DNA of 64,000 bases from Alphaproteobacteria bacterium (lineage in GTDB: Bacteria > Pseudomonadota > Alphaproteobacteria > RF32 > CAG-239). Shown piece by piece: positions 5,468-37,438 of this stretch. Made by a program: the position numbers and the translations under genes. Below the pieces are notes generated by a model. It ran no database searches, was not told the DNA's origin, and worked only from the letters and a program-made list of their open reading frames with translations. The stretch covers positions 3,745 through 67,744 of the forward strand of contig JBGULQ010000013.1 of assembly GCA_045116295.1 (NCBI GenBank), written 5' to 3'. How positions within the stretch are numbered: position 1 is the stretch's first letter; each line of letters starts with the position of its first letter.

Positions 5468-5479
5468 GGCAATTCCTTT

Positions 5480-6109
5480 CTAAAATTCAGAAACAAAATG
5501 CACGACGCCTTTTTCTTTGCGGCGGCGTTTTTTGATTGTGGGAAAATTGTTGCAAATGTAATGATAGCGAGGGCAGTCATCTCCGTGGTCGTTGATAATG
5601 CCGCAGGCCTGTAAATGTGAATATACGGTAACCGTACCGAGAAATTTGAAGCCTCTTTTTTTCAAGTCTTTGCTGATGATGTCGGACAGCTCATTGCTGG
5701 CAGGAATATAGCCTTCACCGTGGCGGTCATAAAGAATGGTTTTGCCATCAGAAAAAGCCCAGAGATAATTGCAAAAACTGCCGAATTCTCGGCGGATTTT
5801 TTGAAAACAACGGGCGTTGTTGATGATGGCGTTTATTTTGCGAGGACTTTTAATCATGCCGGCAGTGTTCATAATCCGGTTTAAGTCATGGTCGGTATAG
5901 GCGGCAATTCGGTCATAATCAAAATTATCAAAACAGCGGCGAAAAATTTCGCGCTTATTAATCATCATATTCCAGTTGAGGCCGCATTGCATGACTTCCA
6001 TCATCAAAAATTCAAACTGTTTTTGGTCGTCATGGAGAGGAACACCCCATTCACGGTCGTGATACATGGTGTTGAGTTCTGATGTTCCGCTCCAGTTGCA
6101 ATAAGCCAT
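5480..6109 (-). CDS. tag: DNA-3-methyladenine glycosylase I
   Basis: YHDREWGVP, FEFLMMEVMQCGLNW and the C-terminal His/Cys zinc-site region (HLQACGIINDHGDDCP) are typical of Tag. Confidence 0.85.
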   Translation of the reverse strand: MAYCNWSGTSELNTMYHDREWGVPLHDDQKQFEFLMMEVMQCGLNWNMMINKREIFRRCFDNFDYDRIAAYTDHDLNRIMNTAGMIKSPRKINAIINNARCFQKIRREFGSFCNYLWAFSDGKTILYDRHGEGYIPASNELSDIISKDLKKRGFKFLGTVTVYSHLQACGIINDHGDDCPRYHYICNNFPTIKKRRRKEKGVVHFVSEF

Positions 6110-6124
6110 TTGAGATATCTCTTT

Positions 6125-6685
6125 TTATAGCAATCCTTCAGCCCATGATTTCAGCTCTTCTGCAGATACGCCGGAGGAAAAACGTTTGCCTTCCAAAACT
6201 TTGGCAGAAGGGGCTAAGGCTTGTATGTTTTTGCCGGAATCACCAATACTGCTCATGCCTGATGTGGCAAACGGAATAACGGTTTTGCCGGCAAAGTCAT
6301 AGCTTGTCATAAAAGTATCAATGATTGAGGGTTCACGATACCACCAAATCGGAAAGCCGACAAATACAACATTGTATTGACTCATGTCGGCGACTTGGCC
6401 AGCAATAGCCGGGCGGCTTGATTTGTCAGCCATTTCAACCGAACTGCGGCTTTTTTTGTCGGTCCAGTCAAGGTCAGCGTTGCTGTAGGGTTGAGCCGGT
6501 TTGATCTCAAACAAATCGGCATTAATTGCCTGTGATAAACGTTCAGCAACTTTGGCAGTTGTGCCGGTGGCACTGAAATATGCTACCAATATTTTTTTAT
6601 CTGTCATATTATTCTCCTGTGCTTGTACATTAATATTGCTCAAAAAAGTGAGAACAGCAGTAATTAAATATAAAAATTTTTTCAT
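6125..6685 (-). CDS. flavodoxin-fold protein with N-terminal signal peptide
   Basis: MKKFLYLITAVLTFLSNINVQAQ, then KILVAYFSATGTTAKVAE (flavodoxin FMN loop). A GAGAGG 7 nt before the ATG at 6685 supports that start. Confidence 0.75.
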   Translation of the reverse strand: MKKFLYLITAVLTFLSNINVQAQENNMTDKKILVAYFSATGTTAKVAERLSQAINADLFEIKPAQPYSNADLDWTDKKSRSSVEMADKSSRPAIAGQVADMSQYNVVFVGFPIWWYREPSIIDTFMTSYDFAGKTVIPFATSGMSSIGDSGKNIQALAPSAKVLEGKRFSSGVSAEELKSWAEGLL

Positions 6686-6696
6686 GCTTTTACCTC

Positions 6697-8445: not shown

Positions 8446-8455
8446 TATTTTTTCC

Positions 8456-9001
8456 TTATTTTAAATTTTTACCAAAATTGTAAGCTTTTTGAAGCAGATC
8501 ATTGTGTTTGCTAGCTTCTTTGGGATCATTTACACCGCCGCCGGCTAAAAGTCCGGCAAAGCGTGATTGTTCAAAACAAGCGACCCATCCTTTGAGGCCG
8601 TTGGCAGCATTATCAGATGCCTCGTCCGAAGCATCATAAGAGGTGGTCAACAGATAGACGTTGCGGAATTTGTTTTCTTGTGAGAACAGCGGGTTGCAAC
8701 GGTCCAAAAAGGTTTTGAGTTGACCGCTCATTTCATAGTAATAAATCGGGGTGGCAAAGACCAAAGTGTCTGCATTTTGAACCTTTTGAATCAGCTCAGC
8801 CATGTCATCTTTGATGACGCATTTGAGAGTTTTTTGGCAGGCAAGACAGCCTTTGCAAAAGTTGATTGCTTTGTCTTTGAGGCTGATAAATTCGGTCTCA
8901 AATCCGGCATCAACGGCACCGCGTTCTACTTCATGAGCAACTATCTCGGAGTTGCTTCCGCCACGCAAGCTTGATGAGATGATTAATACTTTTTTGGTCA
9001 T
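8456..9001 (-). CDS. iron-sulfur flavoprotein-like / NADPH-dependent FMN reductase family
   Basis: MTKKVLIISSSLRGGSNS plus CKGCLACQKTLKC (CX2CX2CX5C). Confidence 0.75.
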   Translation of the reverse strand: MTKKVLIISSSLRGGSNSEIVAHEVERGAVDAGFETEFISLKDKAINFCKGCLACQKTLKCVIKDDMAELIQKVQNADTLVFATPIYYYEMSGQLKTFLDRCNPLFSQENKFRNVYLLTTSYDASDEASDNAANGLKGWVACFEQSRFAGLLAGGGVNDPKEASKHNDLLQKAYNFGKNLK

Positions 9002-9011
9002 TTTTATATCC

Positions 9012-10025
9012 TTATTTTAATTTGTTATATTCTTCATCGGCAACAGGTTCAAGCCACTCAGTCGAGCCGCCTTCACTTGGAATTTCAACAGCAATGTGGG
9101 TAAACCAGCTGTCTTTGGCAGCACCATGCCAGTGTTTGGTTTCGGGCGGAATGTTTACGACATCGCCGGGGTTAAGCTCACGAGCTTCTTCTCCCCAAGC
9201 CTGATACCAACCGCGTCCCGATACGGCAATCAAAATTTGACCGCCTTTGTGGTGAATATGCCAGTTGTTGCGGCATTTGGGCTCAAAGGTTACATTAAAC
9301 ATCGGCACACCTTCTTTATTGATAGGTTGCAGGTAGCTTTGTCCGATAAAATATTTTCCGTAAGGGTTTTTCTCGCCCATGCCGAACAGAATATTTTCGG
9401 CTCGAGCTTTTGAGGCAATCAATAAAACTTCTTTTATTTGCTCATCAGTCAGCCCGTTATGTTTGGCAATTTGAATATGAGCATTGAGTTGACTTTCTAC
9501 ACCTTCACGAGTGGCAAGCATAGCAATGGTTGCCAGTTCTCTGGTTTGCCAGTCGATATCGGAACGAGAGAAAATATCGCCGAATAAGTGAGATTTTAAA
9601 TATTCATCAATTGCCGGTGCAAAATCAAATAATTTGCCTTTAACTTCTGAGCCGACCAATTTGGTTTGGTTTTCAGCACCGGTGGCAAGTGCATTATCAA
9701 GCGGGGTTGATTTTGGGGCAGAAGTATCAAGAGATTTTTCTTCTGCCAGTTGCATTAGAGTTGCCAAGGCATTCAAACTGCGAGGAAAACCGCAGTAAGC
9801 ATAGGACTGAACCAGAACTTCACGCAGTTCGTTGACGGAAGCACCTTGGTTTATGCCCTCAGCTAAGGCTTTTTTTAAGCCCTGTTGGTCACCAAGTGCG
9901 GCATAAGCAGCACTTGCGGCAATTGATTGTTGTTTGGCAGATAAAGTATTCTGTGCCATAGTATTTTCTCCCCCAAAAATTGATACTGCTATCAGCAATA
10001 TTGGTAATATTTTTTTGATTGCCAT
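9012..10025 (-). CDS. exported carboxymuconolactone-decarboxylase-family / cupin fusion protein
   Basis: N-terminal signal (ILPILLIAVSIFGG...MAQN), a CMD-like helical domain, and a C-terminal cupin (NWHIHHKGGQILIAVSGRGWYQ...GDVVNIPPETKHWHGA). Confidence 0.7.
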   Translation of the reverse strand: MAIKKILPILLIAVSIFGGENTMAQNTLSAKQQSIAASAAYAALGDQQGLKKALAEGINQGASVNELREVLVQSYAYCGFPRSLNALATLMQLAEEKSLDTSAPKSTPLDNALATGAENQTKLVGSEVKGKLFDFAPAIDEYLKSHLFGDIFSRSDIDWQTRELATIAMLATREGVESQLNAHIQIAKHNGLTDEQIKEVLLIASKARAENILFGMGEKNPYGKYFIGQSYLQPINKEGVPMFNVTFEPKCRNNWHIHHKGGQILIAVSGRGWYQAWGEEARELNPGDVVNIPPETKHWHGAAKDSWFTHIAVEIPSEGGSTEWLEPVADEEYNKLK

Positions 10026-10034
10026 GTTTGTTCC

Positions 10035-11102
10035 TTATTTAAGATTGGTTTTGAAAAATTCTTCAATTTTATCAAACGGGATTTTTTCTAGGTTGTCATA
10101 CAAATCTACATGATTTGCATCAGGAACAATGTATAACTCTTTGTTTTCTCCGGTGAGTTTTTTGAACGCGTCTTCCGAGAAATAACGGCTGTGAGCTTTT
10201 TCACCATGAATCATTAAAACAGCACTTTTGATGGTGTCGCTATAGGCCAAAATAGGTTGGGTTATCAGTGAAAGAGCAGAAGTGGTGTTCCAGTGTCCGT
10301 TAGAGTTAATCGAACGTTTGTGGAAACCGCGCGGTGTTTTGTAATATTCGAAATATTCTTTTACAAACAGCGGTTCGTTGCCGGTCAATTTATCAGGAAG
10401 ACCAGGAGCTTCGGCATAAGTGCCTTTCATGGCATCTTCGGTGCGTTGTGCGTTCAAGCTTTGGCGTAGTTTGTAGAGGTCATCTGCAGACATTGAGTCA
10501 TTATAGCCTTTGGCACTTACTCTGGTCATGTCATACATGGTGGAAGTAACAGTTGCTTTAATACGGGTATCTTGAGCGGCAGCATTAAGCCCAAAACCAC
10601 CAAAACCGCAAATTCCGATAATTCCGATTTTGTCTTTGTCAACGTAAGACAGAGTGCTTAGGAAATCGACAGCGGCGCTAAAGTCTTCAGTATTGATATC
10701 TGGAGAAGCGACGTTACGAACATTACCTTCTGATTCTCCGGTAAATGATGGATCAAAGGCCAAAGTTACAAAGCCGCGTTCGGCCAGTGTTTGAGCATAC
10801 AGACCTGAAGCCTGTTCTTTAACAGCACCGAACGGACCGGAGACGGCAATGGCCGGAAATTGTTTGTTATCACGGTCTTTAGGAAGATAGATGTTGCCGA
10901 CCAAAACGATACCGAAACGGTTTTGGAAGGATACGCGGTGAGTTTCAACTTTATCACTTTGAGGGAACACTTTGTCCCATTGAGGAGTGTTTTCGGCGGT
11001 GTCGGTTGATTTGTTTTCTACTGCTGGGGTGTCTTTTTTCATAAAATAATAACCTCCTGCTAATACGGTTATTGCAATCAGTGATAAAATTATTTTTTTC
11101 AT
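10035..11102 (-). CDS. alpha/beta hydrolase (dienelactone-hydrolase-like, Cys elbow)
   Basis: 355 aa with an N-terminal hydrophobic anchor or signal. The nucleophile elbow is GICGFGG (G-x-C-x-G). Confidence 0.7.
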   Translation of the reverse strand: MKKIILSLIAITVLAGGYYFMKKDTPAVENKSTDTAENTPQWDKVFPQSDKVETHRVSFQNRFGIVLVGNIYLPKDRDNKQFPAIAVSGPFGAVKEQASGLYAQTLAERGFVTLAFDPSFTGESEGNVRNVASPDINTEDFSAAVDFLSTLSYVDKDKIGIIGICGFGGFGLNAAAQDTRIKATVTSTMYDMTRVSAKGYNDSMSADDLYKLRQSLNAQRTEDAMKGTYAEAPGLPDKLTGNEPLFVKEYFEYYKTPRGFHKRSINSNGHWNTTSALSLITQPILAYSDTIKSAVLMIHGEKAHSRYFSEDAFKKLTGENKELYIVPDANHVDLYDNLEKIPFDKIEEFFKTNLK

Positions 11103-11111
11103 GTATTTCTC

Positions 11112-11747
11112 CTATCGGATAAAGTTGGTAAACACAATTTGTTCTTCTGCGGGCATAGGTACGCCGGCTTTTTTACCGGCTTCCTGACATTTTAGGTGCC
11201 AAGCCATATTGCGGGCTAATATGCGCATATTTTGCAGGCCCTCAAGGTCTTGTCGGACTTCATCGGGTGTATGTCCGTGTACCATATTCCAATATCTGCC
11301 GGATATTACGGGCATTTCGGATATGGTAAAATATTTGTTGAGTTGATCAAGAGTTGCGGTAGTTCCCGAGCGACGAGCGCTGGCAACGGCGGCTCCCGGT
11401 TTGTGGCGGAAAATTGCGCCGTTACCGGACATAAATGCTGAAAAGAAAGCTCGGTCTAAAAAAGAGGTTATTGCACCGCCGGCAGAGGCATAATGTACGG
11501 GAGAGCCGAAAATAAAGGCATCAGCGTTTTTAGCAAGCTCAAGAAACTCGTTGACTTTGTCATCAATTACACAATGACCGAGTTTGCTACAACTTCCACA
11601 GCCGAGACAGCCGGATATAGGTTTGGTGCCGATGTGATAAATTTCAGAATCGATACCTTCAGTTTTAAGAGTTTGAGCGATTTCATTCAAAGCGGTAAAG
11701 GTACATCCGTTTTTGTGCGGAGAACCATTAACAAGCAAGACTTTCAT
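11112..11747 (-). CDS. iron-sulfur flavoprotein-like / NADPH-dependent FMN reductase family
   Basis: MKVLLVNGSPHKNGCT plus CLGCGSCSKLGHC (CX2CX2CX5C). Confidence 0.75.
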   Translation of the reverse strand: MKVLLVNGSPHKNGCTFTALNEIAQTLKTEGIDSEIYHIGTKPISGCLGCGSCSKLGHCVIDDKVNEFLELAKNADAFIFGSPVHYASAGGAITSFLDRAFFSAFMSGNGAIFRHKPGAAVASARRSGTTATLDQLNKYFTISEMPVISGRYWNMVHGHTPDEVRQDLEGLQNMRILARNMAWHLKCQEAGKKAGVPMPAEEQIVFTNFIR

Positions 11748-11759
11748 TATAATTTTCTC

Positions 11760-12608
11760 CTAATCTGCAGGTTTCCATTGAGTAAAACGTTGTTGTTCGG
11801 CAAGGGAGGCGGTGTAATAACGCTGTCCGTTGTCGAGTTTGGCGATTTCGCGCATTTCGTCGGCAGTCAGTTCAAAATCAAAAATATCAAAATTGTCGCG
11901 CATATGTTCAAGATTGGTAGTTTTGGGGAAGACAGAATTTCCCTCTTGAATATGCCAACGCAGAATGATTTGAACATTAGTTTTGCCATATTTTTGAGCA
12001 AGTTTTGTAAAGACAGGCTCATTAATCAGTTTGGGGTCGCCGTGACCGATCGGATACCAGCTTTCAATGATTGTGCCGTATTCGGCCATACGTTTTTTTA
12101 GTTCATGCTGAGGAAAATAAGGGTGGCATTCAACCTGAATTGCGGCGGGTTTGATGGTGGCGTGATTGAGCAAGTCGTCAAGATTTTCCTTAAAATTAGA
12201 AATTCCGATAGATTTGACTTTGCCGAGTTTGACGGCTTTTTCCATATCTTTCCATGCGCCGATATAGTCGCCGACCTGTTGGTGAAGTAGCAGAAGGTCA
12301 ATATAGTCGGTCTGCAGGCGGTCAAGCATTTTATCGATGGCTTCAAGGGTTTGACCTTCGCCGTATTCGGTCGGCCAAAGTTTGGTGGTAATCCAGACTT
12401 CACTACGTTTTAGGCCACTTTGTTTCAAAGCTGTGCCGACGCCACGCTCATTTTGGTAGGCGTGGGCGGTATCTATATGACGGTAGCCGAGTTTTATGGC
12501 GTTGAGGCAGGCGTTAACGGTTTCTTCTCCATCGGGAACCAAATATACACCCAAGCCGAATTGTGGCATTTTTTCGCCGTTATTTAAGGTTAAATAAGTT
12601 TGTGTCAT
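11760..12608 (-). CDS. aldo-keto reductase (DkgA-like)
   Basis: 282 aa. LNNGEKMPQFGLGVY, GYRHIDTAHAYQNE and IPKT-type C-terminal motifs are typical of the AKR superfamily. Confidence 0.85.
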   Translation of the reverse strand: MTQTYLTLNNGEKMPQFGLGVYLVPDGEETVNACLNAIKLGYRHIDTAHAYQNERGVGTALKQSGLKRSEVWITTKLWPTEYGEGQTLEAIDKMLDRLQTDYIDLLLLHQQVGDYIGAWKDMEKAVKLGKVKSIGISNFKENLDDLLNHATIKPAAIQVECHPYFPQHELKKRMAEYGTIIESWYPIGHGDPKLINEPVFTKLAQKYGKTNVQIILRWHIQEGNSVFPKTTNLEHMRDNFDIFDFELTADEMREIAKLDNGQRYYTASLAEQQRFTQWKPAD

Positions 12609-12623
12609 GATAATTTTCCTTTA

Positions 12624-13220
12624 TTAAAAACCTAATTCTTTGAGCCAAGCAGAAACCTTGGTTTGTGCCTTATCGGGAGAGTTTTGTGCCTCGTGTCCGT
12701 AAATTGCCAATCCGCTCAGGGTTTTAGCACCGGTGGCTTTTTTGAGGTTGGCGGGAATCTCGGATAAGCCGCTGCCTTCGTGAGTTACGAACGGAACGAC
12801 GGTTTTGCCCGACCAGTCATGTTTTTCAATAAAAGTATAGAGTGCCATAGGCATATCTGCCCACCAAACAGGGGAGCCGACGAAAACGACGTCATAGTCG
12901 TCAAAGTTTTCGACATCGCCAATGATGGCGGGGCGGGTGTTTTGAGATTTTTCCTGTTTTGCGACCTGTGTGAGTTCTGTATAACCGGCGGGGTAGGTGT
13001 CAGATTGGAGTTTGACTTCAAACAAATCGCCGTTGGTTTCACGAGCAATCATTTCAGCAACGATTGCGGTGTTGCCTTTAGTGATGTTGCCGACGCTGTA
13101 TTGTTCGCCGGTGCGTGAAAAATATACAATCAATGTTTTCATGTTTTTTTCCTCTGCTTTGACTGCCCAAGAGAGCAAGATTATGGTTAAGATGGTCAGG
13201 GCTAATATAATCTTTTTCAT
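12624..13220 (-). CDS. flavodoxin-fold protein with N-terminal signal peptide
   Basis: MKKIILALTILTIILLSWAVKAEE, then TLIVYFSRTGE. This is the first gene of the minus-strand operon. Confidence 0.75.
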   Translation of the reverse strand: MKKIILALTILTIILLSWAVKAEEKNMKTLIVYFSRTGEQYSVGNITKGNTAIVAEMIARETNGDLFEVKLQSDTYPAGYTELTQVAKQEKSQNTRPAIIGDVENFDDYDVVFVGSPVWWADMPMALYTFIEKHDWSGKTVVPFVTHEGSGLSEIPANLKKATGAKTLSGLAIYGHEAQNSPDKAQTKVSAWLKELGF

Positions 13221-17303: not shown

Positions 17304-18404
<1,101 letters not shown>

Positions 18405-18480: not shown

Positions 18481-19572
18481 ATGATGATAAAAAAGATGCA
18501 GAAGTATAATAAAATAAAAAATATTGATAATAATCTCAGAACCTATGCAGCAATAGATTTGGGGACGAACTCTTGTCGTCTGGTGATTGCAACGCCGACA
18601 CCGACTTCTTTTCGTATTATTGAAACTTTTTCCAGAATAACCAGATTGGGTGAAGGAATTATAAACGGAAACTGTTTAAGCAAAGATGCAATCAGAAGAA
18701 CAGTACGTGCGTTGAAAATATGTTCAGAAGTGATAAATGAGTATGCGCCGATATACAGGTCGCGCTTTGTGGCGACTGCAGCTTGTCGAAGAGCCGATAA
18801 TTGCAAGGAATTTATGGCAGAGGTGAAAAAACAGACTGGGCTTAATCTTGAAATTATTTCTTCGCAAGAAGAGGCAAGATTGGCCGTGGTCGGTTGTGTT
18901 CCCTTGTTGAATCGAAATTTGAAAAGGGTGTTGGTTTTTGATATTGGCGGCGGATCAACGGAAATATCATTAGCTAGAGTGACCAATACCGGAAAAACAT
19001 TTATTGAGGGATATGTATCTTTGCCGTATGGTGTGGTTACGGTATCGGAAGCGTTTCCAAACAAAGAAATGACAAACTTGGCTTATAATACAATTGTTGA
19101 ACGTACGCACAAGTTACTGGAAGATTTTGAAGAAAAACACCATATTTTTGAAGCCATACGCGATCAGGAAATTCAGATTATAGGAACATCAGGAACGGTT
19201 ACGGTGCTGGGGGCAATACAGTTAAATTTAACCCGCTATAATCGTTCGGCTGTTGATGGAATTTCAATTACAAAACAAGATTTGGATCAATCAATTTCAA
19301 AAATCAGGCGTATGGGAACAGAGGGGCGCAAAAAACATCCGTGTATAGGCCCGTTAAAAGCTGATTTGACAATAGCTGGTTGCGCTATTATTGAGGGAAT
19401 TTGTTCGTTTTGGCCGGTATCAGAAATTACGGTTGCCGATAGGGGAATTCGAGAAGGTATGTTGTTAGATATGATGCATAATCGGGATCAAAAAACTCGC
19501 CGCCATAACTTATATAACAGACGTAATAAGAGGAACTATGAACATGCAAAAAACAAGTCTGGCAGCCATTGA
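18481..19572 (+). CDS. Ppx/GppA-family phosphatase (short form), copy 1
   Basis: AAIDLGTNSCRLVIA and DIGGGSTE motifs. Confidence 0.8.
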   Translation: MMIKKMQKYNKIKNIDNNLRTYAAIDLGTNSCRLVIATPTPTSFRIIETFSRITRLGEGIINGNCLSKDAIRRTVRALKICSEVINEYAPIYRSRFVATAACRRADNCKEFMAEVKKQTGLNLEIISSQEEARLAVVGCVPLLNRNLKRVLVFDIGGGSTEISLARVTNTGKTFIEGYVSLPYGVVTVSEAFPNKEMTNLAYNTIVERTHKLLEDFEEKHHIFEAIRDQEIQIIGTSGTVTVLGAIQLNLTRYNRSAVDGISITKQDLDQSISKIRRMGTEGRKKHPCIGPLKADLTIAGCAIIEGICSFWPVSEITVADRGIREGMLLDMMHNRDQKTRRHNLYNRRNKRNYEHAKNKSGSH

Positions 19573-20485
19573 TTTGGGAACAAATTCTTGTCGTCTGCTG
19601 ATTGCTGACGAACATGGGCATGAGATGTTCAAGAATGCAGTGCCGATACGTTTGGGAGAGGGAATGACCAAAAACAATCGTTTTACCGATGATGCTATGG
19701 CACGCGGTATAGAGTGTTTTTGTATGTTTAAGATGTTTATGGATGAGTATAATGTAAGAAAATACCGTGCAGTTGCTACAGCTGCCTGCAGAATGGCTGA
19801 AAACGGAGTTGAATTTGCGCATAAGGTAAAACAACAGGCAAATATCAATTTGGAAGTGATAGACGGCTATGAAGAAGCGCGGCTGAATTTACTCGGTGCA
19901 ATGGCAAATGTAAAAGATGAAAATGTAAAATATGTTGTGGTATATGATTTAGGCGGGGGATCAACCGAAATTACATTGGCAACAAAAGAAAAAAATCCAA
20001 AAATTTTACATACAATATCTATTCCTTGGGGGGCAAGAAACAGTGCAGAAAAGTTTGAGATTGGTGATTATGACTGTAAAAAGGCAGAAAAATTGGCTTC
20101 TGTTATAAGTAGTTACAGTAGAAAATTTGTTGATGATGCCAATCTTTTACGTTATAAGAATGAAATTTGTTTTGTAGCAACGTCAAGTGTTCCGTTGAGG
20201 TTGGCACATATTGCTTATGATTGGTCGGTGTATGAACGTGAACGCGCTGACGGTGTGGTTGTTAGCACTTCAGAATTTGATAGAGCAATTGATAAGGTCT
20301 ATCTTATGGATGAAAAACAAAGATTGGCTCATCCTTGTATAGGTCAATCAAGAGCGGATATTTTTACTGCAGCTTGTGTGATTTTTTCGCAGATATACTG
20401 TGATCTCGGTGCAAATAAGATTGTGGCCTCGCTTAAAAGTGCAGTAGATGGGATGATTATGGAGTTGAAAGATGGCACAAACTAA
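19538..20485 (+). CDS. Ppx/GppA-family phosphatase (short form), copy 2
   Basis: AAIDLGTNSCRLLIA and DLGGGSTE motifs. It overlaps copy 1 by 35 nt. Confidence 0.8.
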   Translation: MNMQKTSLAAIDLGTNSCRLLIADEHGHEMFKNAVPIRLGEGMTKNNRFTDDAMARGIECFCMFKMFMDEYNVRKYRAVATAACRMAENGVEFAHKVKQQANINLEVIDGYEEARLNLLGAMANVKDENVKYVVVYDLGGGSTEITLATKEKNPKILHTISIPWGARNSAEKFEIGDYDCKKAEKLASVISSYSRKFVDDANLLRYKNEICFVATSSVPLRLAHIAYDWSVYERERADGVVVSTSEFDRAIDKVYLMDEKQRLAHPCIGQSRADIFTAACVIFSQIYCDLGANKIVASLKSAVDGMIMELKDGTN

Positions 20486-31698: not shown

Positions 31699-31776
31699 GG
31701 CGAAAGTAGCTCAGTTGGTTAGAGTGTCGGTTTGTGGTACCGAATGTCGTGAGTTCGAGTCTCATCTTTCGCCCCA
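31699..31776 (+). tRNA. tRNA-His (anticodon GTG) with genome-encoded G-1
   Basis: GGCGAAAG/CTTTCGCC forms an 8-bp acceptor including G-1:C73. Anticodon stem-loop TCGGT-TTGTGGT-ACCGA, T-loop TTCGAGT, encoded CCA. Confidence 0.9.
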
Positions 31777-31819: not shown

Positions 31820-32296
31820 TTATCGATGTCTTTGGAAACGTTGTTTTAAGATAGCCATAGATACTTCAAATACTTTTTGTTTTTTACCTTTTTTAAGTAA
31901 GGTCTTATTTTTTTTATTTCCTTTTTCTACATGTTTTCGAGCGACTGCTTTGAGGGCTCTATAAAACTCCATGCCTTTGGGGTGGTGTGTCATATTGCCG
32001 TTTTCATCAAACATCCAGACATTGTGTCCGTCTGAGAAATCCTTGCTTTTGAGAGTTCCGTCTTCGTACCATTCATGTACAATATTGTTAGGAAGAAATT
32101 CTACTTTCATATTTCCGTTTTCGTACCACAAACGCCATGTGTTGTCAGGGAGTAGTTCTTCTCGCATTTGTCCGTTTTTATACCATGAATGAAAAGTGCC
32201 GTTAGGAAGCTCTTCTGTTTTAATGTTTCCGTTGTCATAATAGGTTCGACATACATCTTCTGTTCTTTGAAGTTGATTTTGTTGGGATCCTGTCAT
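31820..32296 (-). CDS. MORN-variant (YwqK-like) repeat protein with basic C-terminal tail
   Basis: Four and a half 19-aa repeats of the form WY-x-NG-x4-E-x-LP-x-N (YYDNGNIKTEELPNGTFHS, WYKNGQMREELLPDNTWRL, WYENGNMKVEFLPNNIVHE, WYEDGTLKSKDFSDGHNVW). The tail reads KGNKKNKTLLKKGKKQK. Confidence 0.7.
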   Translation of the reverse strand: MTGSQQNQLQRTEDVCRTYYDNGNIKTEELPNGTFHSWYKNGQMREELLPDNTWRLWYENGNMKVEFLPNNIVHEWYEDGTLKSKDFSDGHNVWMFDENGNMTHHPKGMEFYRALKAVARKHVEKGNKKNKTLLKKGKKQKVFEVSMAILKQRFQRHR

Positions 32297-32490: not shown

Positions 32491-32739
32491 ATGACAAATT
32501 TTAAGACACCTGCTCCAGCACCATCACAGGAACCGACATTATTTCCGACTTATGATCAGCTGGTGCAAGAAAATGCAGACTTGAAGCAACAAATTGCGGA
32601 TTTGGAGCAACAAATTGAAGATTTGAAGCAACAAAATGCAAAATTGGAGAAAGATGCTGCACTTTGGGAGAGCCGCTATGATGAGGAGAGTGCTGAAAAC
32701 TGTAAACTAAGGCGCGAGCTTGCTGTTTTGGAGGAGTGA
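32491..32739 (+). CDS. small coiled-coil protein
   Basis: 82 aa with a Pro-rich N-terminus, then the heptads DLKQQIA/DLEQQIE/DLKQQNA. Confidence 0.55.
   Translation: MTNFKTPAPAPSQEPTLFPTYDQLVQENADLKQQIADLEQQIEDLKQQNAKLEKDAALWESRYDEESAENCKLRRELAVLEE
32578..32640 (+). repeat. 3 x 21-bp in-frame tandem repeat
   Basis: GACTTGAAGCAACAAATTGCG / GATTTGGAGCAACAAATTGAA / GATTTGAAGCAACAAAATGCA. Confidence 0.85.
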
Positions 32740-32899: not shown

Positions 32900-32973
32900 G
32901 CGAGTATAATTCAATGGTAGAATGAGAGCTTCCCAAGCTTTAAATGCGGGTTCGATTCCCGTTACTCGCTCCA
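32900..32973 (+). tRNA. tRNA-Gly (anticodon CCC)
   Basis: Hand-folded. Acceptor GCGAGTA/TACTCGC, anticodon stem-loop AGAGC-TTCCCAA-GCTTT, T-arm GCGGG-TTCGATT-CCCGT, encoded CCA. Confidence 0.9.
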
Positions 32974-33002: not shown

Positions 33003-33392
33003 ATGAAAAAGTTATTTGCATTATTGTTGGCGGCCGGTTGCTTGACAGCGTTTCAGGCTAAGGCTGATTTGGTCAGTGCGGCTACCAAAGCTCAAAATAA
33101 AATTGACAGTGCAACCGCAACTGTTGAAAATACAAAGGCTTCTGTAGCTGATGCTCAGACTGAGGCAACTCAAAAAGCCGAAGCCAAAAAACAAGCAGTA
33201 AGAGATAAGGTGGCTGCTAAAAAGGCTGAGGTGCAGGCAAAGAAGAAAGAAATAAGAAATAAAATTGAGGCCAAAAAAGCTGAAAATGAAGCTAAAAAAG
33301 CTGAAAATGAAGCTAAAAAAGCTGAGCAAAAAAAAGCCGTTGAAGATACTAAAAACAGCATAAATAATTTGAAAAACGCTTTTACAAAATAA
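33003..33392 (+). CDS. secreted Ala/Lys/Glu-rich coiled-coil protein
   Basis: Signal peptide MKKLFALLLAAGCLTAFQAKA|DL. The mature part is low-complexity helical, with AKKAENE repeated. A GGAGG lies 8 nt before the ATG. Confidence 0.65.
   Translation: MKKLFALLLAAGCLTAFQAKADLVSAATKAQNKIDSATATVENTKASVADAQTEATQKAEAKKQAVRDKVAAKKAEVQAKKKEIRNKIEAKKAENEAKKAENEAKKAEQKKAVEDTKNSINNLKNAFTK
33279..33325 (+). repeat. about 2.2 x 21-bp in-frame tandem repeat
   Basis: GCTGAAAATGAAGCTAAAAAA occurs at 33279 and 33300, and a third copy starts at 33321. Confidence 0.85.
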
Positions 33393-33413
33393 ATTTAGAT
33401 GTACTAGGACACG

Positions 33414-33442
33414 ACAGCCCCTCCGCAAGGAGAGGCTGTTTT
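33414..33442 (+). terminator. terminator, module A
   Basis: ACAGCCCCTCC-GCAA-GGAGAGGCTGT followed by TTTT. Confidence 0.65.
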
Positions 33443-33463
33443 GATGTGTGAGGATTTTTTTTG

Positions 33464-33492
33464 TTGACGTTTTGTCAAAATTGTGCTAGTAT
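33464..33492 (+). promoter_or_regulatory. promoter, module A, with -35-embedded dyad
   Basis: TTGACG, a 17-nt spacer, then TAGTAT, with a TGC extended -10. The dyad TTGACGTTTTGTCAA lies at 33464-33478. Confidence 0.6.
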
Positions 33493-33539
33493 TAGACTCG
33501 ATATTTTGAATTATTAACCTTATAATTATATGAAGCTTT

Positions 33540-33989
33540 ATGGAGATGTTAAAGAATGTTTTATGGGCAATTGGTGATGATATCCGCATCATTGCTAAAG
33601 TTCTCAAGCCACTGGCACGATGGAAGTTTGAGGTTCTGGGTATTATTGGATTATTACCGTTGTTTGGGCGAATCTTTGATATGAATCAAATACCGGAACC
33701 AATGTGGTATGCTGTTGTAATCGGCATACTTTTAGCGGTATGGTTTGTAGTCTGCTACTTCGAGGCTTGGGGAGAACTGGGTTGGGACCTTACTTTTTTA
33801 GGGTTTAAGATTGTTCCCATATTCGTCTGGGCTTATTGGCTCGGCGCGGCGGCAAAGTACTGGCTGCATGCACCGAACTGGTTGCACTATGCAATCCTAG
33901 CACTTCCGGTGTATGTTTTGGTATGGCATATGGGGAAAGCATACTGCAACCACATCAATAAAAAAATGGATGAGCTCAGAAAAAGTTAG
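33540..33989 (+). CDS. small polytopic membrane protein, array paralogue 1
   Basis: 149 aa with 3-4 hydrophobic helices. It shares the ordered motifs PMWYAV, WAYWLG and ILALPVYV with paralogues 2 and 3. Confidence 0.65.
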   Translation: MEMLKNVLWAIGDDIRIIAKVLKPLARWKFEVLGIIGLLPLFGRIFDMNQIPEPMWYAVVIGILLAVWFVVCYFEAWGELGWDLTFLGFKIVPIFVWAYWLGAAAKYWLHAPNWLHYAILALPVYVLVWHMGKAYCNHINKKMDELRKS

Positions 33990-34003
33990 TAATTTTCTTA
34001 ATA

Positions 34004-34040
34004 CCGAAACCGCCTCTCCGTAAAGAAGGGGCGGTTTTGG
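34004..34040 (+). terminator. terminator, module B (repeat copy 1)
   Basis: CCGAAACCGCCTCTCC-GTAAA-GAAGGGGCGGTTTTGG. Confidence 0.7.
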
Positions 34041-34058
34041 TTATGGAAGATTTTTTTG

Positions 34059-34087
34059 TTGACGTTTTGTCAACAAGGTGTTAGCAT
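34059..34087 (+). promoter_or_regulatory. promoter, module B, with -35-embedded dyad
   Basis: TTGACG, a 17-nt spacer, then TAGCAT. The dyad TTGACGTTTTGTCAA lies at 34059-34073. Confidence 0.6.
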
Positions 34088-34116
34088 GACGGTAAAATTT
34101 AATTATTCTTAAAATT

Positions 34117-34467
34117 ATGGAAAGATTCTTACATTATTTATCTCGGAATAAGAACGGAATTGTGTACGTTCTTTTGGTTGTTGCACTAGTAGGCATGGCA
34201 GTAATGTCGTACAGACAACGTGCCGGATTGGAGTGGTACGCAGTGGCTATAATCGTGATGTATCTGGTGGCAGGCATCATGATGGAGTTCCATAAGAAAT
34301 TGGCAAATGTTCTTATGGTAATTGCGTTGAGCAGTGTTTATGCGTATTGGCTGACAATTGCCTGCAGTAGCGTGAATGTTGCGGCTGTTACCTATGTTAT
34401 ATCAGCTCTGCCGTTTGTTGTGGCGGCTGTGTACTGGTATCTGAGTGAGCGTAAAGTTTGCACATAA
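34117..34467 (+). CDS. small polytopic membrane protein, array paralogue 2
   Basis: 116 aa with motifs LEWYAV, YAYWLT and ISALPFVV. Confidence 0.65.
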   Translation: MERFLHYLSRNKNGIVYVLLVVALVGMAVMSYRQRAGLEWYAVAIIVMYLVAGIMMEFHKKLANVLMVIALSSVYAYWLTIACSSVNVAAVTYVISALPFVVAAVYWYLSERKVCT

Positions 34468-34478
34468 AGAGACTTGAA

Positions 34479-34515
34479 CCGAAACCGCCTCTCCGTAAAG
34501 GAGGGGCGGTTTTGG
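34479..34515 (+). terminator. terminator, module C (repeat copy 2)
   Basis: CCGAAACCGCCTCTCC-GTAAA-GGAGGGGCGGTTTTGG. Confidence 0.7.
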
Positions 34516-34531
34516 TTATGATAAAAAAATG

Positions 34532-34560
34532 TTGACATTTTGTCAATATTGCGATAGTAT
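34532..34560 (+). promoter_or_regulatory. promoter, module C, with perfect -35-embedded dyad
   Basis: TTGACA, a 17-nt spacer, then TAGTAT. The dyad TTGACA-TTT-TGTCAA lies at 34532-34546. Confidence 0.6.
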
Positions 34561-34595
34561 AAGAACAAATAACATTATTAACTAATTATTGTAAT

Positions 34596-34994
34596 ATGGA
34601 AACGAAAAAAGTTTTAAAAATCGTTTGGAAGGACATTTGCAATGTTGCAAAATTTGTAGGTAATCTTCTCGTCGCTGTATTTGTTTATGGCGGGATATTA
34701 ATTGCAATAATGTCATTGATACTGTGCATGGCCAAAGGTTTACCATCACCGGAATGGTATGGTGCGATTAGCTCATTCCTAGTTGTCGTATGTTTGCTAC
34801 TAGAATTGACAGAGGTAATATCGGATAAAAACTATTGGTCAGGTATAGAAATGGTTTTGCTATCGGCCATATGGTCGTATTGGATTGCTATGATCAGTGA
34901 ATGGTATGTCATTCTGGCAATTCCAATTCTCGTTGCTTTGTATTATGTGGGAAATGCATATATAAAGCACGTGAAGAAGGAGCTAGAAAAATAA
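34596..34994 (+). CDS. small polytopic membrane protein, array paralogue 3
   Basis: 132 aa with motifs PEWYGA, WSYWIA and ILAIPILV. The N- and C-termini resemble paralogue 1 (AYIKHVKKELEK versus AYCNHINKKMDELRKS). Confidence 0.65.
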   Translation: METKKVLKIVWKDICNVAKFVGNLLVAVFVYGGILIAIMSLILCMAKGLPSPEWYGAISSFLVVVCLLLELTEVISDKNYWSGIEMVLLSAIWSYWIAMISEWYVILAIPILVALYYVGNAYIKHVKKELEK

Positions 34995-35003
34995 CTATTA
35001 ATA

Positions 35004-35040
35004 CCGAAACCGCCTCTCCGTAAAGGAGGGGCGGTTTTGG
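35004..35040 (+). terminator. terminator, module D (repeat copy 3)
   Basis: Identical to copy 2, and the flanking ATA...GTTATGG is identical to copy 1. Confidence 0.7.
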
Positions 35041-35059
35041 TTATGGTAAATATCGAGTC

Positions 35060-35089
35060 TTGACATAAAAGGATTTTTGATGATAGATT
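35060..35089 (+). promoter_or_regulatory. promoter, module D (no dyad)
   Basis: TTGACA, an 18-nt spacer, then TAGATT, with a TGA extended -10. Confidence 0.45.
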
Positions 35090-35124
35090 CTGCGTATCAG
35101 TTTGATTATTATCAATATTATTTT

Positions 35125-35532
35125 ATGAAAACAAAGAAAATTTTACCCAAAGATGTTCGTGCTGCTCTTAGTATTGAGCGTGCAACAATGCAAAGAATGG
35201 GAATATCTCCACGGATGAACGAGACATTTATTTACATCTTTGAAGATACTTATTGGAAGCCGACTGTTAAAGGGCTTTATAGGGATTATCTGTTAAACTG
35301 GTGTAAAGATATCCTCACGAAACAAGTAGTGAAGGCAATGCCTCAAGACAAGCAACAAAAACTGCAAACACTTTGGCATGACAATGTTAATGAAAGTTTT
35401 GTTGCCTCCTCGGATATGGTATATGCCGGATTGTGGGCGCAAGTGGTTTATGCTTGCGATAGTGAGCCAGAGTTGCTGTTTGTAATACCTGAGTTTGTGT
35501 CCGGATATGTTTCAATGGCGGAGATTAAGTGA
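35125..35532 (+). CDS. hypothetical cytoplasmic protein (fourth cassette)
   Basis: 135 aa from the first ATG downstream of the predicted promoter. The track ORF start at 35077 (TTG) lies inside the promoter. No TM segment and no recognised motif. Confidence 0.5.
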   Translation: MKTKKILPKDVRAALSIERATMQRMGISPRMNETFIYIFEDTYWKPTVKGLYRDYLLNWCKDILTKQVVKAMPQDKQQKLQTLWHDNVNESFVASSDMVYAGLWAQVVYACDSEPELLFVIPEFVSGYVSMAEIK

Positions 35533-35546
35533 TTATGCTAAGTATA

Positions 35547-35576
35547 AAAGCGGCTGTCCTTTCGGGCAACCGCTTT
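35547..35576. terminator. bidirectional stem-loop between the cassette and ppiD
   Basis: AAAAGCGGCTGTCC-TTTC-GGGCAACCGCTTTT. The stem is imperfect and is flanked by an A-run and a T-run. Confidence 0.5.
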
Positions 35577-35599
35577 TATGGTTAGTTATTTGAAGATAT

Positions 35600-37438
35600 C
35601 TAGTCTTCAAGCCCGAGTTGACGATATTTTACTCGGACGTCGTATTTGTTGCCATAACTGTTGATTAAGTTAGAAGCAGCCTCTTGTCTAAGGTCAAGGC
35701 TCAGACGACGGTTGATAATATCCATATCTTGTTCGGATAACTCACGCGGAGAAGCGTCGCTGTCAACAACAGCGATAATCGTCTTGTCTGATACAGAAAA
35801 CTGCTTTCCGGTATTGCTTTTGTCATTAAACAACTCAATCATTTGAGATTGTTTGAGGTCTGCAAAATTTTGGCTTCTGGTCAGAGCAGGAGTGGTGTTA
35901 ACTCTGAGATGATAACGGCGGGCGATCTCATCTAATTTATCACCGTTTTCAAGATCTGTCATAACGTCATTGATGATTTCCTGCGCGATGGCCGATTTTT
36001 CGTTTTCTTCCCACAATTTTTTGATTTTCGGAGTTGATGCAGCCAGATCGAGCTGGTGAGAATCAACAACATTATCAATACGGATAAAGACAAAACCATG
36101 ATCACTTTCTGTGGCTTGTGATATTTCTCCCAAATTGTAGGAATATGCGGTTTCTGTATATGGGGATTCGGTATCTTCTCCAGAGAGACCTTTTATGGTC
36201 TTTAGTGGAACGCCAAGCTCTTTAGAAATATCTTCAAGTGAAGAGCCAGAGCCGATTTTGTCATCGATTTCTTTGGTGATTTCATAAGCATCATCATAAG
36301 CTTTTTCAATGCTCAAGGCTTCGATGATTTGGCGACGTGCAACCTGTGAGTCAACTTTTGAGCCTGATTTAATGTTTTGTACTTTCATAATATGCCAACC
36401 GAGATCAGATTGTGTCGGTCCGACAATTGAGCCAATTTTGGCATCAAAAATATCATCAGCCATTTCTTCAACCAAATTGTCTTTTGATACAAAGCCTAGG
36501 TCGGTATCTTCCTTGGTTTGTTCGGCAAATTTTTGAGCAGTAGCATAAAAATCTGCACCGTTGCTCAGTTCTTTTGAGGCTTTGCGGGCGGTTTCTTCGT
36601 CAGCAAAAATCATTTGTAAAATTTGACGTGTTTCAGGAGTTTCAAAGCGATCAATATTGTTTTTGTAATATTCATCAATGTCGTCATCGCTGATTTTAAC
36701 ATGTTTTGCAATGTCTTCAAATGAAAGTTCTAAAACGGTGATATCACGGGTTTCGGGAGCGATGAATTCAGCTCCGAAATCGTTATAGTACTGTTCTACC
36801 TCTTCAGGTGTGATGGTGCGATCGATTTTGGTTGTTGCCGGATCTATTTCAATGTATTTGAAAATTTTACGCTGACTTTCAGCCTTAGCGGTAAGTTGAG
36901 CCAGTGTTTTAGAAACATTGATATCACTTACCGGGTTGGTAATTAAGAAACTTCTGATTAAATCGTTGCGTAGTGTTTCAACATATTTTTGTTCGGTGAG
37001 ATTGGTGGCGGACAAAAAGTTTTTGAAAAGGTACATATCAAATTGCTGTTTGTCGTTATAAAATTGCGGTTGGGATCTTATAATGTTACCTATAAGATTA
37101 TTGCCAACGAAAATGTGCTGTTTTGATGCAATTTCTTTTGTAATTAGCTCGCTGAGGTCTTTTTGAACCAGTTCAGATGCCATGGCTGTGCGCATTTCAT
37201 CAGTGATTTCGATGTTGTCACCAAATAATTTGCGGGCGGTGCGAATCTGTTCCTCAATTTGCATATTAAATTCAGCCAGACTTATTTTATTGTTATTGAC
37301 CCTGATGACGGCAGGGTTGGAAGCAGCACGATTTAGGTAGCCGGAGATTCCGAATAATGACATAAAGCTCAGCGCGGTAAGTGCAAATATGAGCTTTGCA
37401 ATCCATGAATCCTGGGCTTGGCGTAATCTAGTAATCAT
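35600..37438 (-). CDS. ppiD: membrane-anchored periplasmic chaperone / peptidyl-prolyl isomerase (PpiD/SurA-like)
   Basis: 612 aa with an N-terminal TM helix (AKLIFALTALSFMSLFGISG), a SurA-N-like region and a parvulin-like segment (GWHIMKV). Confidence 0.75.
   Translation of the reverse strand: MITRLRQAQDSWIAKLIFALTALSFMSLFGISGYLNRAASNPAVIRVNNNKISLAEFNMQIEEQIRTARKLFGDNIEITDEMRTAMASELVQKDLSELITKEIASKQHIFVGNNLIGNIIRSQPQFYNDKQQFDMYLFKNFLSATNLTEQKYVETLRNDLIRSFLITNPVSDINVSKTLAQLTAKAESQRKIFKYIEIDPATTKIDRTITPEEVEQYYNDFGAEFIAPETRDITVLELSFEDIAKHVKISDDDIDEYYKNNIDRFETPETRQILQMIFADEETARKASKELSNGADFYATAQKFAEQTKEDTDLGFVSKDNLVEEMADDIFDAKIGSIVGPTQSDLGWHIMKVQNIKSGSKVDSQVARRQIIEALSIEKAYDDAYEITKEIDDKIGSGSSLEDISKELGVPLKTIKGLSGEDTESPYTETAYSYNLGEISQATESDHGFVFIRIDNVVDSHQLDLAASTPKIKKLWEENEKSAIAQEIINDVMTDLENGDKLDEIARRYHLRVNTTPALTRSQNFADLKQSQMIELFNDKSNTGKQFSVSDKTIIAVVDSDASPRELSEQDMDIINRRLSLDLRQEAASNLINSYGNKYDVRVKYRQLGLED

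Follow-up and report, generated by a model that had tools for sequence, protein, structure and literature searches.

Composite promoter/terminator motifs mediate the shuffling of gene cassettes by homologous recombination in T4-type phages, where they are known as promoter-early stem-loop (PeSL) cassettes (Arbiol et al. 2010, PMC2839356; Comeau et al. 2014, PMC4122927). PeSL motifs number about 50 per T4-like phage genome, their stem-loop varies in sequence and takes five positions, the genes between them are unrelated ORFans, and mini-circles as well as promoter and terminator activity have been shown experimentally. In chromosomal integrons, conserved hairpin repeats such as the Vibrio repeats lie between divergent ORFs, the attC core site has the consensus GTTRRRY, and the cassettes are mostly promoterless and driven by Pc. 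The rAID-1 arrays of gut Bacteroidales are defined by a 5' XerD-like recombinase (>44% identity to BF9343_RS08045) and carry up to 31 unrelated genes with skewed GC and homology to known immunity families, separated by repetitive intergenic sequences that have been called reminiscent of integrons (Ross et al., 10.1101/471110).

Here, a small gene array was analyzed in the chromosome of an uncultured rumen alphaproteobacterium (cattle), within a 64-kb stretch of DNA referred to as the window. With a probability of about 0.62, this locus is a lineage-specific, hypervariable array of self-contained cassettes that are shuffled via shared terminator-promoter modules, and in mechanism it is closer to the PeSL cassettes of T4-type phages, with their promoter and terminator, than to integrons, rAID-1 or any other known system.

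The array is an islet within an otherwise housekeeping stretch, with mutL, tRNA-His (31700-31776) and tRNA-Gly(CCC) (32900..32973, + strand, found with ARAGORN and Rfam) to its left and ppiD (35600-37438, - strand), tpiA, secG and pyrG to its right. The tRNA-Gly(CCC) gene, the left landmark of the variable islet, was 100% conserved across all related loci, and an att-like duplication was not seen, since no partial copy of its 3' end was found downstream. The array itself is anchored on the left by a gene (33003..33392, + strand) present in every allele, which encodes an Ala/Lys-rich protein with an N-terminal signal peptide and a coiled coil (129 aa in the window, 122 aa at other loci) and contains a 21-nt repeat of varying copy number (family D5, 33262-33324). 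Family matches of this protein were rejected as driven by composition only. The islet also contains a gene encoding a MORN-repeat protein whose presence varies between strains. On the right, the array is anchored by gene D (35125..35532, + strand), encoding a soluble orphan protein of 135 aa and likewise present in every allele, and a convergent terminator hairpin (35537..35586, strand unassigned, fold of -28.8 kcal/mol) lies between D and ppiD. The GC content of the array (0.36-0.44) showed no distinct composition relative to the flanks (0.35-0.45). The statement in the first-pass annotation that the array lacks an adjacent recombinase, toxin or phage gene holds for the scanned ORFs of the 64-kb window, in which none was found; the Pfam scan, direct or via the syntenic locus L006, covered nearly every ORF of at least 150 aa, about five ORFs of the window had no Pfam match, and the inspection for recombinases took in the 64 kb and about 20 kb of flanks.

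The array consists of cassette genes A (33540..33989), B (34117..34467) and C (34596..34994), all on the + strand and encoding proteins of 149, 116 and 132 aa; these coordinates and lengths, and the position of D, were exactly as first annotated. Hydropathy predicted four membrane helices for each protein, and four helices were likewise given by a low-confidence AlphaFold model (pLDDT 64). The proposed paralogy of the three genes was borne out by BLASTP for A and C (E 2e-8, 26% identity, full length) and by profile alignment for B, which showed weak pairwise similarity to other members and matched their profile in hhalign with an E value of 1.8e-6 (probability 90%, 98 collinear columns). Among the cassette types from related loci, B' was similar to A (E 3e-9) and C (E 1e-6), and A* to A (E 1e-23). 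The motifs P-x-W-Y, W-[AS]-Y-W-[LI] and Y-x-I-x-x-[LI]-P-x-x-V were collinear in A, A*, B, B' and C, each of which has four hydrophobic helices and ends in a basic C-terminal tail, and these proteins, about 115-155 aa long, are assigned by sequence comparison to a new orphan family of four-helix membrane proteins. Protein C' has only the last family motif, and its hhalign match to the family was not significant (E 0.058-0.074).

Members of the family formed 5 clusters among 1.84 billion representative proteins, all at this locus, and in word-indexed searches of 5.8 billion sequences the only matches were the queries themselves and sequences near-identical to them. No match to the family was found in Pfam, PHROGs, PADLOC, NCBIfam or PDB, and neither the family nor D had relatives among 2.9 million viral contigs. 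Searches for a family or structure match to D also returned none. Gene D is under purifying selection (pN/pS about 0.25-0.3), and its region ~35175-35425 was near-identical to that of lineage 2 (2 differences) with both ends diverged, so that D itself is a mosaic between lineages. For A, B and C, pN/pS estimates were based on 2-12 substitutions.

The intercassette module of ~75 nt consists of a hairpin followed about 13-18 nt on by a sigma70-type promoter. The hairpin unit, a predicted bidirectional intrinsic terminator, occurs on the + strand at 34004..34045 (unit 1), 34479..34520 (unit 2) and 35004..35045 (unit 3) with 1, 0 and 0 mismatches, respectively; the three positions and the single substitution claimed earlier are correct, and the unit as typed comprises 42 nt rather than the stated 43. 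In a repeat search the unit was widened to family D2, with a length of 54 nt. The hairpins formed by the three units have stems of 17-18 bp and folding energies between -28.5 and -34.8 kcal/mol (z -4.9 to -8.0), and they were not flagged by a generic terminator scan because the T-run lies partly inside the stem. The related hairpin previously noted at 33414 corresponds to hp0 (33413..33446, + strand, -21.3 kcal/mol), which aligned with the units and keeps their layout in diverged form, with a compensatory substitution of C-G by A-T in the stem, and is predicted to be the terminator of the upstream gene. In alleles without A (L002, L006-L008, L014, L019-L025), hp0 is replaced by an unrelated hairpin, hpX. 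Across the loci, the 25 copies of the hairpin core fell into 7 variants with no more than 3 differences, and the D/ppiD terminator, used as a control in an alignment with L005, had diverged between lineages, whereas the adjacent unit had not.

The unit was restricted to this locus. No further copy was present in the 64 kb, the part of the window's own genome to which this count applies, all 3 copies lay within the array, and 0 copies were expected in shuffled sequence. Among the 185,579 species-representative genomes of GTDB, the unit occurred at one locus on one contig, a JGI metagenome scan recovered it only on that same 46,748-nt contig, and it was in no viral contig. A generic REP or terminator element, which the first-pass annotation had considered, therefore does not describe the unit, and a dispersed repeat of the REP, BIME or MITE type was rejected because dispersed copies behind unrelated genes were not found.

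Promoter-like sites on the + strand matched the sigma70-like consensus at 9-10 of 12 positions with correct spacing, namely P_A (33464..33492, TTGACG-17-TG-n-TAGTAT), P_B (34059..34087, TTGACG-17-TG-n-TAGCAT), P_C (34532..34560, TTGACA-17-TAGTAT) and P_D (35060..35089, TTGACA-18-TG-n-TAGATT). The -35 boxes of the first three are embedded in a palindrome that had escaped the earlier annotation, TTGACnTTTTGTCAA (TTGAC-N5-GTCAA), located at 33464-33478 (TTGACGTTTTGTCAA), 34059-34073 and 34532-34546, and P_D is without it. This pattern was seen 3 times in the window, where 0.09 occurrences would be expected, and the P_B copy extends to 8-nt arms (TTGTTGAC/GTCAACAA). Instead of being an operator, the palindrome may have been inherited as part of the promoter. 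The P_A site was conserved upstream of A in L004 and L010-L012, the hairpin-promoter layout was kept in 10 modules, and the promoters of the cassettes were related to each other. The description of near-identical terminator-promoter modules between the genes was upheld computationally, by folds and consensus matches, and promoter and terminator activity is predicted on this basis. Since every gene has a hairpin and its own promoter, each is predicted to be insulated and separately transcribed, giving one transcript per gene.

The same chromosomal site was compared in about 20 rumen or bovine metagenome contigs (all alleles were metagenome assemblies, about 20 of them independent), which contained six cassette types joined in ten different ways, with every cassette-to-cassette junction running through the hairpin unit. 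The arrays seen were A-B-C, A-B'-C' (one assembly), A-B', B-C, B alone and B-A*. Cassette A was absent from the L006-L008, L014 and L019-L025 alleles and C from the L002, L008 and L014 alleles; B was followed by C, D or A* depending on the contig, and cassette order varied, with A before B in one allele and B before A* in another. The orthologous loci thus show extensive turnover and not a fixed single-copy gene, as the proposed cassette-like arrangement implied. At the junctions, the left flank of the unit tracked the upstream ORF and the right flank tracked the downstream promoter. Chimeric unit-2/unit-3 junctions were present in L002, L008, L014 and L018, all without C, and the loss of C and the loss of C' each left a chimeric unit. 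Three junction comparisons broke at or inside the unit, and the A>B and A>B' junctions diverged only past the promoter palindrome, ~30 nt beyond the unit. Between A and A*, identity was 100% in the unit, 86% in the upstream region (including P_A), 53% in the coding sequence and 41% at third positions, which appear saturated. The hairpin unit was also shared by C' and D, although neither has detectable homology to the family (for C', by hhalign only).

Cassette A was 99.3% identical, with 0/94 synonymous differences, in a lineage in which ppiD and tpiA differ at pS 0.67, which shows a recent exchange of this cassette between lineages. In the comparison of the window with L010, identity was 66-92% over mutL, the MORN gene, the coiled-coil gene and most of the signal-peptide gene, and 96-100% from about 33351 to 34075, placing the left boundary of the exchanged segment inside the upstream gene.

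Near-identity among the modules, together with a length above the RecA-type minimum, could allow them to serve as portable homology. A crossover anywhere in a module would delete, insert, reorder or replace whole cassettes, and its product would always be a chimeric yet intact terminator-promoter junction, so that new cassette combinations would be expressed at once. Module homology would also allow single cassettes to pass between related species. The recombination is probably homologous rather than site-specific, and gene conversion would keep the modules alike.

This scheme resembles PeSL shuffling in several respects. Both combine a strong sigma70-like promoter with a stable stem-loop terminator in a conserved span of roughly 75-100 nt, both place these repeats between small orphan ORFs in a hyperplastic region bounded by conserved core genes, and in both, indels or replacements between close relatives break within the motifs, so that one chimeric motif remains. 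Promoter and terminator travel with each shuffled gene, and the mechanism proposed for PeSL is homologous recombination without a dedicated recombinase. In contrast to PeSL, the present locus is one small array in a bacterial chromosome with housekeeping neighbors, its stem-loop is almost invariant and always upstream of the -35 box, its genes are mostly paralogues of one membrane-protein family, and its promoters and terminators are predicted.

Chromosomal integrons share with this locus the co-directional small genes, the highly conserved imperfect-palindrome repeats and the whole-cassette gain, loss and reordering among strains, and rAID-1 shares the gut or rumen habitat, the two or more small, fast-diverging co-directional genes with repetitive intergenic sequence, the strain-variable content and the lack of an adjacent cognate toxin. 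A site-specific system of this kind, in which the hairpin would be the site of a recombinase encoded elsewhere that moves ORF-plus-hairpin cassettes, would fit the highly conserved hairpins between divergent ORFs, comparable to Vibrio repeats and to the integron-like repeats of rAID-1 (10.1101/471110), as well as a conservation of the hairpin core that far exceeds pairing needs and the three breaks at or within the unit. However, a recombinase was found in neither the 64-kb window nor the flanks of related loci, which were covered over up to 10 kb, and no intI, attI or Pc was found in the scanned ORFs of the window and related flanks. The hairpin lacks attC architecture and core sites, its stem being a perfect helix with no extrahelical bases and its 3' flank, GGTTATGG or GGTATGTG, not fitting the attC core consensus. 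Every cassette has its own promoter-like site, unlike integron cassettes, and crossover points are spread over the module instead of lying at one fixed position, as seen at the A>B and A>B' junctions and at the left boundary of the exchanged A segment within the upstream gene. The XerD-like recombinase that defines rAID-1 was not found here (10.1101/471110), nor were its GC skew and homology to known immunity families, and the array holds 1-3 paralogues in another host phylum. The likeness to integrons and rAID-1 drawn in the first-pass annotation is therefore kept as an analogy for the co-directional genes and repeats and given up as membership, and a site-specific origin of the array is considered quite improbable.

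An ordinary tandem family, arising by duplication of a gene along with its promoter and terminator, with regulatory DNA under purifying selection, differential loss and recombination between strains, is a somewhat better candidate but still unlikely. It agrees with the true paralogy of A, A*, B, B' and C and their related promoters, and every allele could be explained by differential deletion from a longer ancestral array plus ordinary strain exchange with no special property of the module: all observed arrays are derivable from a longer ancestor by direct-repeat deletions, and direct repeats of 42-76 nt suffice for RecA-mediated deletion. It is harder to reconcile with saturated third positions beside an identical unit in A and A*, with the differing cassette order, with the sharing of the unit by C' and D, and with the absence of synonymous differences in cassette A; moreover, terminators under selection can normally accept compensatory changes, as in hp0 and the D/ppiD terminator. 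The main difference from shuffling via shared modules is whether the recombination role of the module is incidental or selected. Holins are small multi-helix membrane proteins with charged C-termini, which the cassette proteins resemble, and the islet could also be read as a prophage or lysis-exclusion remnant at tRNA-Gly with holin-like or superinfection-exclusion four-helix proteins and spanin-like coiled-coil neighbors. The position between tRNA genes and ppiD, the variable presence of the MORN gene and weak PHROG matches of two coiled-coil proteins to Rz-like spanins (E 5.6e-4 and 2.7e-3) would be in line with such an origin, which is nevertheless very improbable: no integrase, endolysin, capsid, tail or other phage gene was found, the tRNA 3' end has no att-like duplicate, the family and D have no relatives among the viral contigs, GC is like that of the surroundings, and the coiled-coil matches are composition-driven, with dozens of unrelated coiled-coil families matched too.

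For the shuffled cassettes themselves, envelope-level protection, as immunity to membrane-targeting toxins or as phage exclusion, is tentatively suggested as the function of the proteins. Immunity proteins against pore-forming colicins have about 110-180 aa, 3-4 membrane helices and no catalytic motifs, and the cassette proteins are similar in small size, helix number and the absence of a catalytic motif, with specificity plausibly residing in the helices; this resemblance is topological only, without sequence or profile similarity or an adjacent toxin, and no toxin, secretion system or phage link was found in support of immunity. A broader proposal, and a doubtful one, is that the locus might be a counterpart of PeSL in a bacterial chromosome, with self-expressing cassettes moved by their own module without a dedicated recombinase, possibly via circles, and with diversifying immunity or exclusion membrane proteins as a cargo co-regulated through the palindrome.

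The scope of these findings is narrow, namely one uncultured rumen lineage, in which the locus offers a compact natural example of a cassette that crossed lineages only about 80% identical and of flanking non-coding DNA far more conserved than the genes it carries, with a protein family new to every database searched. If shuffling is real, terminator-promoter motifs would act as 'plug-and-play' recombination adaptors in cellular genomes too, and not in T4-type phages alone, and would let variation arise at the cassette level without a recombinase, by a route that differs from those of integrons and rAID arrays. Strain-variable small membrane proteins, each predicted to be separately expressed, are the signature expected of toxin or phage defence in a dense gut community, and the locus therefore offers concrete candidates for such a role.

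On the forward strand, the array consists of cassette genes A (33540-33989), B (34117-34467) and C (34596-34994), which encode small membrane proteins, followed by a fourth ORF, gene D (35125-35532), and all four lie where the first-pass annotation had placed them. A hairpin unit was found at 34004, 34479 and 35004 with 1, 0 and 0 mismatches in a search of the whole 64-kb window; these positions and the single substitution agree with that annotation, while the sequence typed there is 42 nt long, not 43 nt. No further copy of the 42-nt unit was found elsewhere in the 64 kb, and shuffled sequence expects none. In a repeat search of the window, the unit with its flanks was recovered as a 54-nt repeat family (D2) and the promoter regions as a second family (D4). 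Folding gave each unit a hairpin of 17-18 bp (-28.5 to -34.8 kcal/mol) with an A-run on the upstream side and a T-run on the downstream side, the layout of a predicted bidirectional intrinsic terminator; on this basis the units would have terminator activity. The hairpin at about 33413-33446, previously noted as a related hairpin near 33414, is a diverged copy of the unit with a compensatory stem change.

Promoter-like sites are located 13-18 nt 3' of each unit: TTGACG-17-TAGTAT before A, TTGACG-17-TAGCAT before B, TTGACA-17-TAGTAT before C and TTGACA-18-TAGATT before D. The promoter proposed after each hairpin thus has a matching promoter-like site at all four positions, but the TG extension is present in only three of the four, and the site before D has an 18-nt spacer and TAGATT. 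The -35 boxes before A, B and C each lie inside a palindrome, TTGAC-N5-GTCAA, which was absent from the earlier annotation and has three copies in the window where chance would give 0.09. In related loci, the palindrome was also observed before A, B, C and the relatives A* and B', and was not found before D or the extra cassette C'. The modules, each a unit with its promoter-like site, are predicted to have promoter activity, and the palindrome is a candidate operator. The strongest consensus match of the region (11/12) is an antisense one, TTGACA-17-TATCAT at 34518-34546 (minus) in module 2, which uses the opposite arm of the palindrome; its counterparts in modules 1 and 3 match poorly, and since only copy 2 has a good match, it was treated as chance and not as a module feature.

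The paralogy proposed for the three cassette genes was borne out. A and C match over their full length with 26% identity (E 2e-8), and B, whose pairwise similarity to A and to C is weak, matches a profile of A, A*, C and B' with E 1.8e-6, a probability of 90% and 98 collinear columns. These pairwise and profile comparisons support the placement of A, A*, B, B' and C in one protein family; the homology of C' to this family is not significant. Four helices were obtained both from hydropathy and from a low-confidence AlphaFold model of A (pLDDT 64), and the Lys-rich N-terminus and basic C-terminal tail suggest that both ends are cytoplasmic. No meaningful match to the cassette proteins was found in Pfam, PHROGs, PADLOC or NCBIfam, no match to the family among PDB sequences, and nothing below E 6.7 in a Foldseek search of the A model (pLDDT 64) against the PDB. 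When 1.84 billion representative proteins were scanned exhaustively with an HMM, only five clusters emerged, which are A, B, C, B' and A*, and word-indexed searches returned those five plus near-identical variants, so the cassette proteins are regarded as a new orphan family. The dN/dS values among cassette alleles are based on very few substitutions. At the 3' end of B', small indels including a poly-A run of 8 versus 7 A distinguish L004 (1714-1760, minus) from L010 (6370-6400), giving products of 133 and 144 aa with different C-terminal tails, and this poly-A region may be slippage-prone.

By exact-protein look-ups and cluster listings, 25 loci from about 20 assemblies at the same chromosomal site (L001-L025, several on contigs labelled bovine metagenome) were collected, and the arrays, flanked by the conserved secreted-protein gene on one side and D on the other, were mapped by BLAST. 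Six array types were observed, with no fixed single-copy gene at the orthologous loci: A-B-C (the window, with parts confirmed by L001 and L003), B-C (L006, L007), B only (L002, L008, L014), B-A* (L024, L025 and the overlapping L009, which carries A*-D), and in a second lineage A-B' (L010-L012, with L013 covering B'-D only) and A-B'-C' (the identical L004 and L005). Ten junction types were found in the 25 unit copies, namely A>B, A>B', B>C, B>A*, B'>C' and, into D, B>D, B'>D, C>D, C'>D and A*>D; D, which lies outside the family, thus does use the unit module, as had been noted. In 25/25 copies the 12-nt left flank of the unit goes with the upstream ORF and the right flank with the downstream promoter. 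For the unit itself, only seven variants were recorded, none of them with more than three differences. A single chimeric unit stands in the place of a missing C or C'. Divergence between the A>B and A>B' junctions starts only past the promoter palindrome, indicating that crossover points are spread over the module and not fixed.

Assembly artefacts were considered for two of these junctions. A chimeric assembly placing A beside B' was excluded by four further independent assemblies with A>B' (five in all), and a repeat collapse producing B>D was excluded because the assembly k-mers (87-141) exceed the repeat in length (at most 54 nt) and because the junction occurs in five assemblies with differing backgrounds. 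Eight independent contigs end (L019-L023) or begin (L015-L017) in the 42-nt unit or beside it, often paired by sample (ERZ930493, ERZ27279893, ERZ922505). Such breaks exactly at the unit are expected if several alleles share one sample, which suggests that coexisting array alleles break the assembly graph there.

Divergence was discordant along the array. Between A and A*, the unit is 100% and the promoter with 5' UTR 86% identical, while identity falls to 53% in the coding sequences and to a saturated 41% at their third positions. In ppiD and tpiA, the window differs from the second lineage (L010) with pS 0.67 and about 80% nucleotide identity, whereas cassette A differs at 3 of 450 nt, with 0/94 synonymous differences. 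At about 33301-33351, the 50-nt identity profile rises from 66-92% to a level of 96-100%, which it keeps until 34075, over a stretch covering the end of the upstream gene, the diverged hairpin, the promoter-like site, A and unit 1 up to the next -35 box. By this comparison, two deeply diverged lineages have recently exchanged a single module-bounded cassette. The ordinary D/ppiD terminator served as a control: it has diverged from one lineage to the other, while the unit 500 nt from it shows a single difference.

Gene D likewise encodes an orphan, with no meaningful match in Pfam, PHROGs, PADLOC or NCBIfam, an insignificant McrBC match (E 0.011) as the only one among PDB sequences, and an AlphaFold model whose pLDDT of 50 is too low for a structure search, but its pN/pS of about 0.25-0.3 indicates purifying selection. 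It is a mosaic between lineages, with only 2 differences from lineage 2 at about 35175-35425 and 75-85% identity at both ends. The D of L008 has a window-like N-terminus and a lineage-2-like C-terminus.

A small islet between tRNA-His (31700-31776), tRNA-Gly (32900-32973) and ppiD contains the array and also holds a MORN-repeat gene, whose product matches MORN_2, and genes for two coiled-coil proteins, one of 82 aa and the other secreted and Ala/Lys-rich, both with composition-driven matches only in Pfam, PHROGs, PADLOC and NCBIfam. Rfam identified three tRNAs only, the remaining scanned genes of the 64 kb are housekeeping, and the GC content of the array is not distinct from its surroundings. 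A search for an att-like second copy of the 3' end of tRNA-Gly found none. Among strains of one lineage, the window, L014 and L019-L022 carry the MORN gene (31820-32296, minus; segment 31807-32384) and L006 and L008 lack it, with only a short GGTTATC microhomology at the junction. Both coiled-coil genes carry 21-nt (heptad) tandem repeats (32561-32665 and 33262-33324) of strain-variable copy number, the 82-aa protein being 68, 90 or 115 aa elsewhere and the 129-aa secreted protein 122 aa. Further away, an unusually dense run of five flavodoxin/FMN-reductase-like genes (4799-13220, minus) is interleaved with DXP synthase, aldo/keto reductase, CMD-cupin protein and hydrolase genes, and two adjacent overlapping Ppx/GppA phosphatase paralogues (18481-19572 and 19538-20485) have a common N-terminal nucleotide motif (repeat D7). 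An N6/N4 DNA methyltransferase gene without an adjacent restriction gene (17310-18404) encodes a C-terminal RAMA domain, an architecture known from CcrM, the cell-cycle methylase of alphaproteobacteria.

The cassette-like character proposed earlier was upheld, as none of the three outcomes named beforehand as refuting it occurred, and its nearest precedent lies in phages and not in integrons. As had been noted, no recombinase, toxin or phage gene is adjacent, and none was found among the genes scanned in the 64-kb window. An integron was rejected because there is no recombinase among the scanned genes, there are no attC features and each cassette has its own predicted promoter; a Bacteroidales orphan-immunity array (rAID-1) was rejected because the scanned genes include no recombinase, the GC is unskewed and none of the genes has a homologue in a known immunity family. 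A generic genome-wide element is also not indicated, since the unit, with its three copies in the window, was found in one representative genome (MAG "Alphaproteobacteria bacterium Tb.RUG.69"), in one metagenome contig, which had already been found, and in no viral contig; viral contigs also held no relatives of A/A* or D. The promoter-early stem-loop cassettes (PeSLs) of T4-type phages are motifs of a sigma70 promoter plus a stem-loop that flank ORFans, a chimeric motif remains after excision, and homologous recombination has been proposed for their movement, a scheme described and partly demonstrated in these phages (PMC2839356, PMC4122927). The present array, known from metagenome assemblies, appears to work alike, but it is chromosomal and without phage genes and is therefore not a member of the PeSL class.

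The evidence best supports a cassette array that works independently of a recombinase and whose modules double as homology. The terminator-promoter modules would insulate and express each cassette gene and would also provide the homology through which whole cassettes are deleted, inserted, reordered or replaced between lineages, with gene conversion as the putative force homogenising the modules. The reach of this finding is limited by a narrow host range and by evidence from metagenome assemblies only. For the cassette proteins, membrane-level immunity or exclusion is a tentative role, held at roughly one chance in three, which would fit the strain-variable content, the independent strong promoter-like sites, the small non-catalytic helix bundles, the concentration of variation in the N-terminal half and the dense gut habitat.
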